Below are positions 489 through 20,648 of a DNA stretch of 24,750 nt, piece after piece. Location: IMG/VR virus record IMGVR_UViG_3300037993_000206; one strand, 5' to 3'. The translations under genes were made by a program, and so were the position numbers. Every line of letters starts with the position of its first letter. Within the stretch, counting starts at the first letter, position 1. This DNA is from an uncultured virus (IMG/VR IMGVR_UViG_3300037993_000206) (Duplodnaviria > Heunggongvirae > Uroviricota > Caudoviricetes). Under the pieces are notes generated by a model. It did not search any database, was not told the origin of the DNA, and saw only the letters and a list, made by a program, of their open reading frames with translations.

Positions 489-692
489 ATGGAACGATGT
501 GAAATCTGCGGTAAAACAGATGCTATCCAATTCCCAAATATTTATAATTTATCTCTATGTAATTATTGTTTTAACAGTGATAAGTTTAGGAACGAAATTC
601 ACTCAATTCAAACCAACTGGACATCTCAACGTAACCTTGCTCTTCAATTATTAAAGTGTACATCTATCTCTAATAGAGCGTTTGGAGAATGA
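489..692 (+). CDS. Small Zn-finger protein
   Basis: AAGGAG RBS; CEIC…CNYC. Confidence 0.7.
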   Translation: MERCEICGKTDAIQFPNIYNLSLCNYCFNSDKFRNEIHSIQTNWTSQRNLALQLLKCTSISNRAFGE

Positions 693-1084
693 TTAGAAAC
701 GAACCACGTAAACCAATTATCGGGCAAAGGAATGGCTTAAATATTCGCCAAATCCTGAGAGCAAAAACCAAACTTAAAGTGCAAAAACCAATCAACAAAA
801 TCACGCAAAAACAAAGAGAACGGAATAAGAACTGGTCAGAAGTAACTAACAAAAGAATAGAACAAACTGGTAGTCGTTGTGAATGGTGCGGCAAACTCGG
901 ACAACGAAACGGAACCTTAAATTTTCTGTCTGGTCATCATAAAGTCAAAAGACGATTTGGTAATGATTCAATCGAAAACTGCTACGTGGCACACATGATT
1001 AGCTGTCACCAATTTATAGAGGATAATTCAGTTGATGTTTCAATTTATAAAAATAGACTAGATTGGGAGAAACGAAATGCGTAA
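689..1084 (+). CDS. HNH-type nuclease-like protein
   Basis: ATGA overlap; RCEWCG…GHHKVKRR…NCYVAHMISCHQFIE matches the CxxC-HH-N-CH pattern. Confidence 0.7.
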   Translation: MIRNEPRKPIIGQRNGLNIRQILRAKTKLKVQKPINKITQKQRERNKNWSEVTNKRIEQTGSRCEWCGKLGQRNGTLNFLSGHHKVKRRFGNDSIENCYVAHMISCHQFIEDNSVDVSIYKNRLDWEKRNA

Positions 1085-8787: not shown

Positions 8788-9178
8788 ATTCCAACCTCCA
8801 GTACCATCCATCTTCTTTCTTAATTGCAGTTTGTTTTTTAATTAAATGCCCACGATATATTTGACCGGCGCACATTGTTTCATTTGGTCGAACACGATAG
8901 ATAGTTGCATCATCACTCCACCTGTAAGGCACATGTAAATATTGACAATTACGCCCAATAAAATAATCGTCCACATATACATCTGGTGCATGATAACCTT
9001 TTTCAGCAACTTGGCAAGCCATTGAACCTTTATGGGCATGGTCTAACCAATGTTTCTGAATGTCCTTACTTAAAACATGTGAATTATCCCAACAAAATTG
9101 CGACCAATCAAACTCTCGGCCAGGATAACCGCAAGCGGTAGAGTTATGCTTTGCGACTTTATAATCTTTAAACGCCAT
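8771..9178 (-). CDS. Hypothetical protein
   Basis: GGAG RBS, TAATG coupling to the upstream gene. Confidence 0.7.
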   Translation of the reverse strand: MAFKDYKVAKHNSTACGYPGREFDWSQFCWDNSHVLSKDIQKHWLDHAHKGSMACQVAEKGYHAPDVYVDDYFIGRNCQYLHVPYRWSDDATIYRVRPNETMCAGQIYRGHLIKKQTAIKKEDGWYWRLEFDETK

Positions 9179-9333
9179 TATTTTAAAGACTCCAAATACT
9201 TTTTCTCTTTATCAATAGCTTCGGATAGGTTCTCTATACCTAATTCAATATTATGTTTCAACTCTTTTAATGATGTTAGTCGTTTCTCCAAAAGATTAAG
9301 ATTATCTGTTACCGTTTCTTTCACAGTTCTCAT
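9178..9333 (-). CDS. 51-aa coiled-coil protein (not in ORF track)
   Basis: MRTVKETVTDNLNLLEKRLTSLKELKHNIELGIENLSEAIDKEKKYLESLK*; ATGA and TAATG overlaps on both sides. Confidence 0.65.
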   Translation of the reverse strand: MRTVKETVTDNLNLLEKRLTSLKELKHNIELGIENLSEAIDKEKKYLESLK

Positions 9334-9497
9334 TCTACAAACCCCAAAACAATTAATGTGATACCAACAATAATACGGATAACCCTTATATAATGGTCTT
9401 TATGCCATGTTTGGTTTTTATCTTTAATATAAAGTGAGATTGAAAACCATCCATCGGTCACATTCCACATACCGAACAATACTAACCATTTATCCAA
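9330..9497 (-). CDS. 55-aa membrane protein (not in ORF track)
   Basis: TTG start; MDKWLVLFGMWNVTDGWFSISLYI…HYIRVIRIIVGITLIVLGFVE*. Confidence 0.6.
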   Translation of the reverse strand: MDKWLVLFGMWNVTDGWFSISLYIKDKNQTWHKDHYIRVIRIIVGITLIVLGFVE

Positions 9498-12324
9498 CTA
9501 CTACCCCATTTTGAGAGAACATATCTTTCACATTTGCCATTAATTCGGCGAATTTTAAATTCTCAACCGCTACTTTAAAATATTCAGGTTTTAATTCAAT
9601 ACCAATAGCCTTACGTCCGAACTTTAAAGCGACATAAGCCTCACTACCAATCCCTAAAAATGGGGTTAGGATTGTTTCTTTTGGATTAGAGTACAATTTC
9701 ACACAACGCTCAATAGTCGCTAGTTGGAGAGGTGCCACATGTTTTTCGTCGTCGGCTGCTCTAGCGTTAGCAAATTGTAACGTATCTGTTTCTCTTATAC
9801 CGTCCCAAACACCATTCGCCCATTTAATCCATGTTTCATTATCAATATCACCATTTTTTACAGGCAAAACTGGACAGTCATTTTCACCATCTTTTTTAAA
9901 TAGTAATATTTGGTCAATTAATGCTGGGCGTGAATCACTTGAATCACGCCGGAGCGAAACAAAAAGTAATGCAGAACTATGTGTCCTAATCGCCTGGCTC
10001 TGCGGATTTTTTGGCACGAAGCATCTGCCATGTAATACCCATCCTTCTTTCTCAAACGCTCTAATAACCTCGCCTGGAAAATCTTTAATCCCAATATACC
10101 CATCTTTTTGTGCCATAGCAGGAATATCAGAAGTATGTACACACGCCAATCTACCTGGTTTAGTTACTCTTATCAATTCTTTAATAATAAATTTAAAGTG
10201 ACTAAAAAATTCAGTCCAATCTCGACTATTTCCTAAATCTCTTTCCGATGCTGAATATGTAAAAAGTTCGGCAAATGGAGGTGAAAATACACTCATATCA
10301 ATACAGTTATCGCTTAACTCTTTTAATCTCTCACACGAATCACCTAACATAGCAATAAAGTTTTCACCCTTTACTGTTTCAGTTTTATATTCAGATTTAA
10401 TTTGAGTATCCGATCCCAATTCTCCCTTTTCATAATCTCTTATTTGTTCAATTAAAGATGCTTTTAGTCGTCTAGCCATAGCATCTTTACGCATTACGTT
10501 TTGATAGATTTCAGTTTCAACATCATGTAAAATAAGATAAACATTTACGGGTTCTTTTTGACCGTAACGCCATTCACGCCGAATAGCTTGATAATAAGAT
10601 TCCCATGAATCATTTAATCCAAAAAATATCATATTGTGACAATGTTGCCAATTCATGCCAAACCCAAATATTTTTGTTTTAGTCAACATTATAGGTACAT
10701 TACCCTCACGCCATTCCGACTCTCTTTTTTCTTTTTCATCTGGCGTAAGAGAACCATACACACTAACACAATAATCGCCAAATATATTTTCTAAAAGATG
10801 CTGCTCTGCATCAAGTCCACACCACACTACCCACTTATTGTTCAAGATATTTAATTGCTTTTCTGAGTAATTCTGGACTATCTTTGAATTTTCCGATTCC
10901 GAAATTACAACTGGCGCATAGCAATCCACGGACAATGCCCGTTGCATGGTCATGGTCAACGTGGAGAGTTCCCCATCTATCTCTTTTACTTGCACTTGTT
11001 GAACCACAGATTGCACACTTCCCTTCTTGTTTATTAAAGATGGCATCATAGGATTCTCCGGTAAGTCCGTATTTTGATAGCCATTCTTCCCTTCGGTTTT
11101 TACCGTCCCGTTGTTTACGTGCTTCAAGTTCGTTTTCCCGATATGTTGAATCATTAGCATATCGTTCTCGCCGTCTGTCATTCCGTTTATTATTTTGTTC
11201 TGTTGTTCGCACGTATTTCCCCTTATGTTTAATGTAGTATTCGTGTTTATATTGTTGGTCTCGTTTAATTTGTTCTGGCGTTCTTCTATCATGCCATTCT
11301 TTAGATTGTTTGCGCAATTTATCTCGATTGGTAATATAATATGAGTGTCTATATTCTTTATTTGTGAATGGCATAATCTATCCTCATATATTAGATTAGA
11401 AGTTATAATATTAACACATTCTTTTAACTTTGGTAATATTGTATCCTTTCGTATTTTAGCCCTATCCCCAATTCCATGTAATTCTGTAAAAAATAATTGG
11501 TCGGTTGGCTTATAATCCGAACTAATGAAAATGGGTGTAATCTTTAATTCTGGCAGAATAAAACCATCATCGTCATACCCCAAATCAGATGGTTTTGTCA
11601 TTGTTATAGCCCACGAAGATAACCACTGAAAGAATGTTTTTTCAGCATGATGTTTTAAACGCCATTCAGTTCCATTTTTATTAGAACCTTTTTTACGATA
11701 CATTTTGCCTTCAATTTCAATCGTATGCTCTTTGTTGGCATTAATAAAGAAAGTTGCCAACATTTCAGACATTTTGCAAATACCTAAAAACTCTGTGTGA
11801 TTTCCTAACTCAATATAATCATTAGGGGCCGGAGTAGCAGTACAACACAGTTTATATTTAATTCCACTACATAACTCTGTAATTCGTTGTCGAATATGAC
11901 CGCCAACCGATTTCAAGATTGAACTTTCATCCAGAACAATCGCCCCAAACTTAGAATAGTCAAACGAATCAATCATTTCATAGTTTGTAATCCAAAGTTT
12001 GTTATCGCCAATAACTTCCGATTGACTACGAACATACTTAACTTCTAAATCTATTTCATGTGCCATTCTCACTGTTTGTCTGGCAACTGATAATGGCGCA
12101 ACGATTAGGGTATTTTCGCCCATTAACCTAGCCCATTCCAAAGATATGTACGTTTTCCCAAGTCCGGTGTCGAGAAACACAGCGGATAGACCTTTCTTTA
12201 AAGACCAAAGAGTTATATCTTTTTGCCAATCAAATAGTTTGGGGTGAATTAATTTTCGGTCTATAATTTTACCACAATCACCTACTTTATGTTGCTTAGT
12301 TGCAAGAAACTCTAAATATTCCAC
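9490..12324 (-). CDS. SF2 (SNF2-like) helicase fused to a beta-class N4/N6 DNA methyltransferase, with a ~190-aa insertion
   Basis: Helicase motifs DTGLGKT, LDESS, TATP, WVVWC, FGFGMNWQ, QAIRREWRYGQ; MTase catalytic SPPF before SAM-binding TPFLGIGS. Residues ~308-497 are the alternative-frame translation of the nested endonuclease. Confidence 0.9.
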   Translation of the reverse strand: MEYLEFLATKQHKVGDCGKIIDRKLIHPKLFDWQKDITLWSLKKGLSAVFLDTGLGKTYISLEWARLMGENTLIVAPLSVARQTVRMAHEIDLEVKYVRSQSEVIGDNKLWITNYEMIDSFDYSKFGAIVLDESSILKSVGGHIRQRITELCSGIKYKLCCTATPAPNDYIELGNHTEFLGICKMSEMLATFFINANKEHTIEIEGKMYRKKGSNKNGTEWRLKHHAEKTFFQWLSSWAITMTKPSDLGYDDDGFILPELKITPIFISSDYKPTDQLFFTELHGIGDRAKIRKDTILPKLKECVNIITSNLIYEDRLCHSQIKNIDTHIILPIEINCANNLKNGMIEERQNKLNETNNINTNTTLNIRGNTCEQQNKIINGMTDGENDMLMIQHIGKTNLKHVNNGTVKTEGKNGYQNTDLPENPMMPSLINKKGSVQSVVQQVQVKEIDGELSTLTMTMQRALSVDCYAPVVISESENSKIVQNYSEKQLNILNNKWVVWCGLDAEQHLLENIFGDYCVSVYGSLTPDEKEKRESEWREGNVPIMLTKTKIFGFGMNWQHCHNMIFFGLNDSWESYYQAIRREWRYGQKEPVNVYLILHDVETEIYQNVMRKDAMARRLKASLIEQIRDYEKGELGSDTQIKSEYKTETVKGENFIAMLGDSCERLKELSDNCIDMSVFSPPFAELFTYSASERDLGNSRDWTEFFSHFKFIIKELIRVTKPGRLACVHTSDIPAMAQKDGYIGIKDFPGEVIRAFEKEGWVLHGRCFVPKNPQSQAIRTHSSALLFVSLRRDSSDSRPALIDQILLFKKDGENDCPVLPVKNGDIDNETWIKWANGVWDGIRETDTLQFANARAADDEKHVAPLQLATIERCVKLYSNPKETILTPFLGIGSEAYVALKFGRKAIGIELKPEYFKVAVENLKFAELMANVKDMFSQNGVVVG
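10835..11374 (-). CDS. Endonuclease VII-family (His-Me finger) nuclease nested out of frame in the helicase-MTase gene
   Basis: KYGLT…Y…QEGKCAICG…LHVDHDHATGIVRGLLCASCNFGIGKFKDSPELLRKAIKYL; basic helical N-terminus; own SD GAGGA (11381-11385) 6 nt before the ATG. Confidence 0.93.
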   Translation of the reverse strand: MPFTNKEYRHSYYITNRDKLRKQSKEWHDRRTPEQIKRDQQYKHEYYIKHKGKYVRTTEQNNKRNDRRRERYANDSTYRENELEARKQRDGKNRREEWLSKYGLTGESYDAIFNKQEGKCAICGSTSASKRDRWGTLHVDHDHATGIVRGLLCASCNFGIGKFKDSPELLRKAIKYLEQ

Positions 12325-12546
12325 TTCGCCTAATCCTTTTAACCATCACTCTTTACCACTTATTTGCCTTTTCTAGTGGCATTAAATCGTTTTAAGGTAT
12401 CCAACTACCACCCCAACCTTTAACCCCTCTATTTTATTATGATTTCTAATAACGAAATTCTCTGACCATATAAAACATCGGGTAAAACTTTTTCATGTTA
12501 CTAATAAAGGATACATAAAGGAATTTTGACCGTAGAATGTAAATCC

Positions 12547-13014
12547 TTAAACTACATCATGGTTATTATAAGGGATTTTCTTTAAAGCAAGTTCCAAGAG
12601 TTGTCTGGGATTTAACTGGTAGACATTCAAGTAACCTTTTTCAATCATGCCTTGCCGGAAGATTTTAAGGAAAGTACCATGCACACGCTCCCAATGACTA
12701 ACTTCTAACTCTTTTACTACTTGTTTAAACTCCTGCCCTAATGTTTTAGGTTTTGCCTCTTGAGTTTTTTGTACTGGTTTTATAACACTCGGATTGAAGT
12801 GAGGATTAGGAACTTTCACTTTTACTTGTGGTTCTATTTTTGGCGCAACGACTGAAAGTTCTTGATTCGTAAACCATTGAATAACGCTATCAAATTGCAA
12901 CTGAAGTTTATGGTCGCCCTTATCCAAAACTGCAACAGATTTGGGGCCTAGTCCCTGTATTTCAAGTTTATAAGTTTTGCCTTTATGATAACTAGATAGA
13001 TTCTTTAATGCCAT
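12547..13014 (-). CDS. Hypothetical protein
   Basis: AAGGA RBS; 155-aa ORF in operon orientation. Confidence 0.7.
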   Translation of the reverse strand: MALKNLSSYHKGKTYKLEIQGLGPKSVAVLDKGDHKLQLQFDSVIQWFTNQELSVVAPKIEPQVKVKVPNPHFNPSVIKPVQKTQEAKPKTLGQEFKQVVKELEVSHWERVHGTFLKIFRQGMIEKGYLNVYQLNPRQLLELALKKIPYNNHDVV

Positions 13015-19794: not shown

Positions 19795-19989
19795 CTAATC
19801 CTTTGGTTCGTATTTAACGTAGTGAGATTCCACCCAATTATGGATATCAGACTCTTTAAATTTAACATTATTTTTAGAAAATCTAACTACTGGTAGACCT
19901 TGATTAAGATACATTTTTCTAACAGCTTGAGGTTTCATATTAAGTATAGCACAAACCTCTTTTAATGTTAATAGCTTTTCTTCTTCCAT
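19795..19989 (-). CDS. Excisionase-like HTH protein
   Basis: LLTLKEVCAILNM…GLPVVR…FKESDIHNWV. Confidence 0.85.
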   Translation of the reverse strand: MEEEKLLTLKEVCAILNMKPQAVRKMYLNQGLPVVRFSKNNVKFKESDIHNWVESHYVKYEPKD

Positions 19990-20648
19990 TATTTACTCTC
20001 CGTTGTTTCTTTACCAGTTGCCCAATTACAATCTTCATATTTAGTGAAACAAGGCATTAATAATCCCGTTAGTCTACCACTCTCTTTCATTGAAATACTA
20101 TTAGGAATTAAAGAACAAAATTCCACAGCTATGTTTTGATCTTTAATTATATCTCCGGTTTTACCCCTTTCTCTAATCCTTAATGCTACCATTTTATGAC
20201 CAGACTTCTCTAAAGTAGCGATTAACTTTTTTAAAACTGGTGTTCCAAGCGCAATATAAGACTCTGTTTTCTTAGTTTTTAAATCATCTACAAATTGGTT
20301 TAAGTTTGGGTATTTAGCGTTAATCAGATGAGTAATAATTTCATATTCACCTTTAATAATAAAAAGTGTATGTTCAATAGAGATCGTAACCCCGTTTAGA
20401 TTTTTATCAATACCCGCTCGTAGTAAGTCAGACACTTTAATTACACATTCAGGAAAGTCTTTACCTTGTTTAATTTTATACTGAGCAATCATAAACCCAT
20501 CAGTAGCTTCAGCGGTATTATTAATAATATGCAAACCAGATAACTGAGGCCTACTCGCATCATCTTTAGACGTAAAATTAGTAAGTGAAAGAGCTTCTTT
20601 CGGGATAAAACATTCGTTACTTTTTACTTCAACCTTTTTAAATTCCAT
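19989..20648 (-). CDS. DNA polymerase III beta-clamp-like protein (partial length)
   Basis: SKDDASRPQLSGLHI…ATDG…KYPN…GLLMP echo DnaN motifs; 219 aa. Confidence 0.65.
   Translation of the reverse strand: MEFKKVEVKSNECFIPKEALSLTNFTSKDDASRPQLSGLHIINNTAEATDGFMIAQYKIKQGKDFPECVIKVSDLLRAGIDKNLNGVTISIEHTLFIIKGEYEIITHLINAKYPNLNQFVDDLKTKKTESYIALGTPVLKKLIATLEKSGHKMVALRIRERGKTGDIIKDQNIAVEFCSLIPNSISMKESGRLTGLLMPCFTKYEDCNWATGKETTESK

Follow-up and report, generated by a model that had tools for sequence, protein, structure and literature searches.

An Endonuclease VII-family gene nested out of frame in an unbroken phage helicase-methyltransferase gene, probably a homing-type element that is read through by its host gene

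We analyzed a 24,750-nucleotide (nt) stretch of DNA (hereafter, the window) from an uncultured virus of the Caudoviricetes (IMG/VR record IMGVR_UViG_3300037993_000206), a peat-metagenome phage with a guanine-plus-cytosine (GC) content of 34%. The window encodes a helicase-methyltransferase of 944 amino acids (aa), here called the host gene, whose reading frame stays open across an inserted segment of about 552 nt that is itself taken up almost completely by an Endonuclease VII-family gene on the same strand in another frame. We conclude that the insert is probably a homing-type selfish element with dual coding, which the host would read through as a loop and which would be spliced neither as RNA nor as protein. 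This conclusion is based on the selection acting on the open host frame, the recurrence of the same layout in other phage and metagenome sequences, and the comparison of the host gene with relatives that lack the insert.

An endonuclease gene inside an open host frame

The coordinates of the host gene, the insert and the other features of the window are given in Table 1. In Pfam searches, the host protein was matched above the respective cut-offs by Helicase_C (residues 506-588) and N6_N4_Mtase (residues 675-920), and SNF2-rel_dom was found at residues 33-192 with 20.9 bits, under its cut-off of 24.9. The nested open reading frame (ORF) matches Endonuclease_7 (PF02945) over residues 97-178, with E=3.8e-27 and 94.4 bits against a cut-off of 23.6. 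The zinc/catalytic-type motifs of the nuclease (CAICG...VDHDH...VRGLLCASCN) are all intact, and within the CxxC...DHxH...CxxCN residues we take the Cys pairs to be zinc-binding and the His and Asn residues to be catalytic. Among solved structures, its relatives by sequence are Hpy99I (3fc3, E=7.5e-9) and T4 endonuclease VII (1e7d, E=2.9e-4).

The nested ATG falls on the third base of host codon 317, as follows from its distance to the host GTG (12324-11374=950). The nuclease TAA (10835..10837) is separated by one base from the Trp codon (10831..10833) with which the helicase sequence resumes at WVVWC. The TAG ahead of the nested ATG closes the nuclease frame, so that the ORF is a separate cistron with no fusion from far upstream; a frameshift fusion of the N part of the helicase to the nuclease was ruled out by the same stop. 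An initial annotation of this DNA had described a 179-aa Endonuclease VII-family ORF with intact motifs and its own Shine-Dalgarno (SD) sequence, beginning at this base of codon 317 on the same strand, within a host frame that has no stop and returns to helicase sequence one base past the TAA. Each of these elements was recovered here, including the CAIC, VDHDH and CASCN motifs, the GAGGA at 6 nt upstream of the ATG and the unbroken host frame.

Alignment with the empty allele L234 places the junctions at ...IITSNL / insert / NKWVVWC, ahead of the conserved WxxWCxL. The nuclease ORF begins about 14-17 nt inside the insert and stops about 5 nt beyond its inferred end. The insert is nearly all coding, with ~534 of its ~552 nt belonging to the nuclease ORF, which agrees with the earlier description of an insert made up almost entirely of the endonuclease ORF and its ribosome-binding site.

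Table 1. Features of the host gene, the inserted element and the surrounding window.
Feature	Coordinates	Strand	Remarks
Helicase-methyltransferase host gene	9490..12324	minus	944 aa; GTG start at 12324; frame unbroken to the stop
Helicase lobe 1 and linker helix	11392..12324	minus	residues 1-311; backbone, 76% identity to insert-free L234
Inserted element	10840..11391 (+/- 6 nt)	minus	host residues ~312-495; gap relative to insert-free alleles; host frame stop-free
GAGGA, putative Shine-Dalgarno sequence	11381..11385	minus	6 nt 5' of the endonuclease ATG; read from sequence
TAG stop in the endonuclease frame	11378..11380	minus	two codons 5' of the nuclease ATG
Nested Endonuclease VII-family gene	10835..11374	minus	179 aa; ATG start; nuclease frame = host +2, host = nuclease +1
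Segment S, probable co-conversion tract	10690..10833	minus	host residues 498-545; 48 codons
Remainder of helicase lobe 2	10405..10689	minus	residues 546-640; sequence backbone-type again
N6/N4 DNA methyltransferase domain	9565..10302	minus	residues 675-920; PF01555, E=7.3e-19
RusA-like resolvase candidate	19989..20648		within the window

At a GC content of 34%, the stop-free host frame is not dismissible as chance, unlike in actinophages. In a recoding test, the nuclease protein was kept fixed and its codons were redrawn from the window's own codon usage, and the host frame came out stop-free in a fraction of 3.6e-4 of 50,000 synonymous recodings, with a mean of 5.7 stops expected. The Leu, Ile and Val codons at which a host-frame stop is possible all carry a synonym that does not make one (11/11). 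The longest stop-free run in an alternate frame of the window's other 21 genes is 73 codons, compared to 180 at the nested locus.

It is barely credible that this layout stems from a wrongly assembled contig, or from a dead helicase gene, whose frame is open by accident. The metagenome assembly does have low coverage, with a depth of about 2-5, but the window is matched by contigs from four further runs (X2-X5), and the pieces that bridge the junctions show 0 differences (X2, 10502-11092 and 11200-11585; X5, 11168-11549; X4, 10300-10868; X3, 10761-10911). Since both junctions are bridged in this way, the nested layout is not an assembly artefact, and the misassembly at the junctions that the initial annotation had raised as a concern was not seen. 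The flanks are, moreover, about 72-88% identical to intact relatives, and the layout is present in about 14 independent sequences. Neither an insert-free variant nor an alternative joint was found in the contigs of the four DNA runs, where absence from contigs is not proof of absence.

Recurrence of the nested layout and the fate of the insert

The initial annotation had suggested a search of phage genomes for same-strand, out-of-frame HNH or Endonuclease VII ORFs within open host frames. Such Endonuclease VII ORFs were found in Gordonia phage Malisha, in one IMG/VR contig (L135) and in 11 metagenome loci. Altogether, the layout repeats at two sites and in two frame phases; L175 and L176 appear to be one element. 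Malisha gp71, a protein of 619 aa annotated as a helicase only, has a 186-aa insert at the same site as the window; a 176-aa Endonuclease VII ORF, missing from the annotation, lies there in the relative phase seen in the window. Of the 2015 phage records that matched the window nuclease, the two highest ranks went to the nested copies of the Gordonia phages Malisha and Squiddly, the latter resting on a tblastn match beneath the helicase coding sequence. The IMG/VR contig L135 has the nested design in the other phase (host = nuclease +2). Insertion site 1, before WxxWC, is used by the window and most copies, and insertion site 2, located ~48 codons downstream of it, is used by L155, L156 and L159.

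The metagenome loci come from a scan with an alignment of the nested nucleases as query, which returned 80 loci. Helicase flanks were present at 12 of these 80 Endonuclease VII loci, and at 11 of them the nuclease is spanned by a second open frame on the same strand. A covering frame was detected at only 2 of the 68 metagenome loci not flanked by a helicase (147 codons, GC 0.66) and at 2 of 80 Endonuclease VII loci in IMG/VR, both of them high-GC. On these counts, generic Endonuclease VII genes were rejected as a source of the nested cases.

Recoding of the IMG/VR contig L135 left the host frame open in 0 of 30,000 trials. The probability of an open host frame was also simulated for 10 of the 11 metagenome nested loci, with 0/20,000 for L160, 5e-5 for L155, 1.5e-4 for L154, 0.003 for L162, 0.007 for L159, 0.023 for L153, 0.024 for L223, 0.047 for L176, 0.32 for L192 and 0.46 for L156. 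The test is uninformative in the high-GC cases, i.e., L192, L156 and also Malisha (0.35). Overall, the open host frame is maintained by selection and not by chance.

All of the 13 nested copies have an intact nuclease with the pattern CxxC...DH(C/D)H...CxxCN. Differences between copies concentrate at the third position of the nuclease codons, amounting to 23, 15 and 50% at positions 1, 2 and 3 between Malisha and L192, and the identity of the same two copies is 73% in the nuclease frame but falls to 43% for the host frame and 44% for the unused one. As purifying selection acts on the nuclease frame only and the host-frame peptide behaves like that of the unused frame, the host frame is constrained solely to lack stops. 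In an AlphaFold2 model of the host protein built on 58 sequences, residues 322-475 are coil with a pLDDT (the predicted score in the local distance difference test) of 27-38, between a helix at 296-321 and a strand at 497-501. The lobes that flank the insert have pLDDT values mostly of 70-94 (84-94 at residues 21-50 and 61-130). The host-frame peptide of the insert is predicted by this model to be disordered and to lie between the two RecA-like lobes, in keeping with the initial suggestion that the alternative frame is tolerated as an inter-lobe loop.

Homing endonucleases usually reside in introns or inteins, and the insert could in principle be removed by an unrecognized compact intron or a non-canonical intein, with an open host frame that is incidental or serves the splicing element only. 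We consider this very unlikely. Rfam gave no intron family over positions 9000-13000 at E<=10, although this search covers only described families and is blind to undescribed ribozymes. Pfam found no Hint or intein domain in the host and nested proteins, and the junction residues (...SNL/IYE... and ...ILN/NKW...) have neither the Cys/Ser start nor the Asn-Cys/Ser/Thr end of an intein. The insert has the defining features neither of an intein nor of a group I or group II intron, as the initial annotation had already noted for the intron core and the intein end. An open host frame is not required by an intron; nevertheless, several low-GC lineages have preserved it, against odds of 3.6e-4 to <5e-5, and the space in the insert is taken up by the nuclease ORF. 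Furthermore, a self-splicing fold is incompatible with a host-frame peptide that lacks conservation among the copies and takes the form of coil in the model.

Insert-free relatives, mobility and the proposed element

In a large protein collection, 6656 relatives of the host protein were found at E<=0.001, and the counts given here refer to the best 120 of these, 119 of which are non-self. Insert-free alleles predominate (107/119), 11 of the 119 carry an insert of ~150-210 aa at this place, and one has an N-terminal extension only. A segment carried by all homologs as a conserved domain, which the initial annotation had named as telling against its proposal, is thus not what was seen. The insert-free fusions have a length of about 750-785 aa, the closest being 85% identical in the N part, and, as anticipated for alleles of roughly 750 aa, they define the insertion site by the alignment with L234. 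Relatives in cultured phages are mostly a ~430-aa helicase with a separate methylase, also insert-free (e.g., Whouxphf and gp68 of Gordonia phage Holliday). A search of a genome collection with the host protein gave 8 loci (L234-L241) on short contigs of metagenome-assembled genomes from unrelated phyla, in which the full-length matches are insert-free. The labels of these genomes include Paceibacterota, Dehalococcoidia, Saccharibacteria and Methanosarcinales; the loci are most likely phage fragments binned by mistake, and hence give no host assignment.

The 48 codons of segment S, which follow the insert, differ from the rest of the gene in their relationships. Identity of segment S to the closest insert-free alleles is 30-40%, compared to 76-88% for the rest of the gene, and 62-75% to other alleles with an element in the same phase. 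Among the 107 insert-free relatives, its mean identity is 34%, against ~72% for N part, C part and methylase alike, while it is 46-75% in 10 of the 11 insert-bearing relatives. In the N part, segment S, the C part and the methyltransferase, respectively, the window is 76, 30, 80 and 79% identical to the empty allele L234, and 74, 62, 74 and 73% identical to the filled allele L160. At the DNA level, Malisha and Holliday, which both infect Gordonia terrae, are mostly ~80-90% identical (65-78% in a few windows of 60 nt), but only 58-61% in the 120 nt after the insert. Segment S is foreign to the backbone and probably a co-conversion tract, the pattern being that expected from an element copied in together with flanking sequence. 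Judging from these comparisons of sequences, the element has the traits of homing-type mobility, which are patchy presence at one conserved site and mosaic flanks. The proposal of a splicing-free mobile endonuclease, made in the initial annotation, is thereby strengthened by a selected open frame, a sporadic distribution and a probably co-converted downstream tract.

The relative with the backbone closest to that of the window (P0002, available as protein only; 87-88% identity) has an insert of the other phase, in which the host-frame VCDMR aligns with that of L135. Given this close backbone, two element variants may have invaded related backbones independently.

On the other hand, the nuclease might not be selfish but a recruited partner, for example a junction resolvase or a restriction-like module, that is nested for co-expression. 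The Endonuclease VII family includes both the resolvase T4 gp49 (1e7d) and the restriction enzyme Hpy99I (3fc3), and the nuclease is intact in all copies seen and always accompanied by a DNA-modifying host gene. We regard this possibility as unlikely, as 107 of the 119 close relatives do without the nuclease, two sites and two phases are in use, and a foreign downstream tract travels along with the gene. The window, in addition, already has a RusA-like resolvase candidate. The nearest relatives of the nuclease are found in phages that differ widely in GC content and in host, which indicates horizontal spread. A related alternative offered by the initial annotation, a compact nuclease, methyltransferase and helicase unit with restriction-modification-like coupling, is not supported, because the methyltransferase is retained with the helicase and without the nuclease in the same 107 relatives, whereas such a unit would be co-inherited.

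We therefore favor the homing-type element that is read through by its host gene. Its sole gene would be the nuclease, of the beta-beta-alpha-metal type found in the Endonuclease VII family, and would be translated from its own SD sequence and ATG. The element would sit in the inter-lobe linker, directly before the first strand of lobe 2 (WVVWC), and the host frame would be a stop-free spacer that the ribosome reads as a disordered loop of ~184 aa, resulting in a single full-length helicase-methyltransferase. Spread would have occurred by self-copying, together with ~48 downstream codons, into empty alleles. We infer cleavage of the empty site by the nuclease, production of both proteins and a helicase that works with the loop in place.

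Several observations weigh against this proposal. Translation of both frames is deduced from the sequence, as no RNA run was found to contain it, and the Rfam search is limited as mentioned above. As a whole, the AlphaFold2 model is of poor quality (mean pLDDT 63, predicted template modelling score 0.41), and a low pLDDT is no proof of disorder. The insert-bearing P0002 lacks the downstream signature, with an identity of 32% in segment S. The open host frame of L154 extends over only 385 codons, and the N part of the helicase (L154:801-1337) is in a frame other than the nuclease-spanning one (1333-2487), an offset that may come from a frameshift, from an error in sequencing or from another variant of the layout. 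Lastly, two split alleles, L138 (IMG/VR) and L157 (metagenome), have the same nuclease at the same site and the helicase as two ORFs, so that a covalent link between the lobes is not strictly required.

These split alleles, in which the C ORF begins within the 3' end of the nuclease gene, are also what speaks for a helicase that works as two pieces even when nested, with an N part ending in a junk tail, an internally started C part and a dispensable fused frame. A dispensable fusion would, however, gather stops in the host frame, as in L138, where the alternate frames across the nuclease contain 7 and 24 stops. The 13 nested copies have zero host-frame stops, with strong odds in the low-GC ones, and we consider a two-piece helicase in the nested alleles highly improbable.

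Further features were observed in individual loci. A conserved stretch of ~16-20 nt (GTGCTAAACTGGCAAC-like) precedes the nested ATG in L001 (2383-2402), L156, L159, L192, L162 and L155, that is, in elements of either site and either phase. An SD sequence is missing from this stretch, which includes a TAA in the nuclease frame; the window has GAGGA instead. This stretch could be a signal for translation initiation or reinitiation. In L138, the nuclease frame is open for ~50 further Cys-rich codons 5' of the listed ATG (2376-2537), and the end of the N-terminal helicase fragment (...LNAECDLL, 2360-2385) resembles the start of the C fragment (LNSEQDAL), a likeness that may be the remnant of a target duplication. 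A large ORF beside the split helicase (L138:3853-4875, minus strand) may encode an IS605/TnpB-type protein.

The nested-endonuclease helicase of L153 has a second in-frame insertion of ~1 kb (1261-2261), between the equivalents of window residues 57 and 58. It follows the GLGKT Walker A motif and has a weak LAGLIDADG_3 match (E=2.6e-4, under the cut-off); a probable intein, it would mean that this helicase has been invaded twice. In L141 (2747-3505), and likewise in L142, a free-standing gene for a 252-aa endonuclease with HNH_3 and NUMOD4 is located between the helicase and methylase genes. The helicase-methylase locus seems to be a hotspot for homing endonucleases of several kinds.

Elsewhere in the window, the replication module of the phage comprises a primase, a DnaC-like loader, an O-like initiator, a Gam-like protein and the RusA-like protein. 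A second, free-standing HNH endonuclease candidate is present at 689..1084 on the plus strand (phrog_740, E=9e-7). Megablast of window positions 9000-13000 against phage records gave no match.

Relation to known systems

The helicase family analyzed here forms a natural series of empty, read-through and split alleles, and thus a gauge of how far a two-lobed motor protein tolerates insertions. Gene callers miss the nested nucleases, as is the case for Malisha gp71. More tentatively, and with more doubt than confidence, overprinted read-through could be a general third lifestyle, beside introns and inteins, for homing elements in essential phage genes, with a family life history and dosage control. 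Such a lifestyle would span the whole GC range, far beyond actinophages, and its life history would consist of repeated invasion at two sites ~48 codons apart and in two phases, with interconversion with split, genes-in-pieces alleles. The cassette would carry a recoded copy of its target, segment S, as immunity against cleavage, and ribosomes in the host frame that cross the SD sequence and ATG of the nuclease would throttle nuclease synthesis as a built-in dosage control.

Free-standing endonuclease genes that split their host gene are another known arrangement. The HNH-type homing endonuclease gene mobE, inserted in the conserved enzyme gene nrdA of Aeromonas phage Aeh1, reportedly stands free, with no intron or intein, as part of what are called genes in pieces. 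Its layout is resembled by the split alleles L138 and L157, whereas the host gene of the window is unsplit and read through.

An overprinted nuclease of the same family has been described in non-canonical inteins of actinophages, where frame 3 contains an Endonuclease VII-like gene (Gosselin, Arsenault and Gogarten, bioRxiv 10.1101/2025.01.02.630785). Both these genes and the nested gene of the window are same-strand overprints in an in-frame insertion. The insertions of that preprint are, by its description, inteins with conserved splicing domains in DNA polymerase, minor capsid, terminase or thymidylate synthase genes, while the insert of the window lacks a Hint domain and the room for it, and its host-frame sequence is not conserved.

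A close parallel to the insert of the window in design is the ShiLan domain, a hidden, out-of-frame HNH endonuclease in DNA methylases of mycobacteriophages (Arsenault, Gosselin and Gogarten, Genes 2025;16:178, PMC11855218). In the account of its authors, ShiLan has no intron or intein features and is proposed to be retained in the protein as a loop. Like the insert of the window, ShiLan is described as a stop-free, in-frame insertion in a phage DNA-metabolism gene with a patchy, homing-like distribution, and it contains a same-strand nuclease ORF in the third frame that starts a few bases in and stops in the last bases (TAAC in ShiLan, TAAG in the window). Both lack a reported intron or intein signature, and the host-frame product of both is predicted to be a loop. 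The two differ in the invaded part of the host (a methylase and the inter-lobe linker of a helicase, respectively) and in initiation, for which a leaderless GTG was proposed in ShiLan and an SD sequence with ATG is seen in the window. The ShiLan nuclease is an HNH endonuclease compared by its authors with I-HmuI, and the nuclease of the window belongs to Pfam Endonuclease_7; set apart by these descriptions, they are probably members of different families. The ShiLan hosts are high-GC actinophages, in which an open frame is expected by chance (0.32-0.46 in the high-GC loci analyzed here), whereas at the 34% GC of the window selection on the open frame is demonstrable.

A second hidden-HNH case, Pacc40 gp60 (L233 here), was described in a helicase-methylase fusion in the same study (PMC11855218). 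It shares with the window the order of helicase and then N6/N4-methylase, an out-of-frame nuclease ORF and an open host frame, and is a distant homologue with 26-33% identity. Its hidden ORF has 159 codons (nt 765-1244) and follows ...QRPSDI, which corresponds to about residue 247 of the window and is thus a different site. No match was obtained in a tblastn search of Pacc40 gp60 with the window nuclease, and hence no relationship of the two nucleases is detectable. An intein is also present in Pacc40 gp60, while the host gene of the window is without intein features.

The design as such was, on the description given there, already published in 2025 (PMC11855218), and the window is a further case of the kind described. 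It has what distinguishes ShiLan-type insertions, i.e., a stop-free, in-frame insert that is nearly co-extensive with a nuclease ORF in another frame and has no described self-splicing domain. The present case extends this design in three respects: the phage is an AT-rich environmental one with a plain SD sequence and not a high-GC actinophage, the nuclease is of the Endonuclease VII and not of the HNH kind, and the invaded part is a helicase linker in place of a methylase. To what was known of such systems, our results add two sites, two phases and split alleles within one helicase family, and, in statistical terms, the clearest evidence to date for translation through such inserts in place of splicing.

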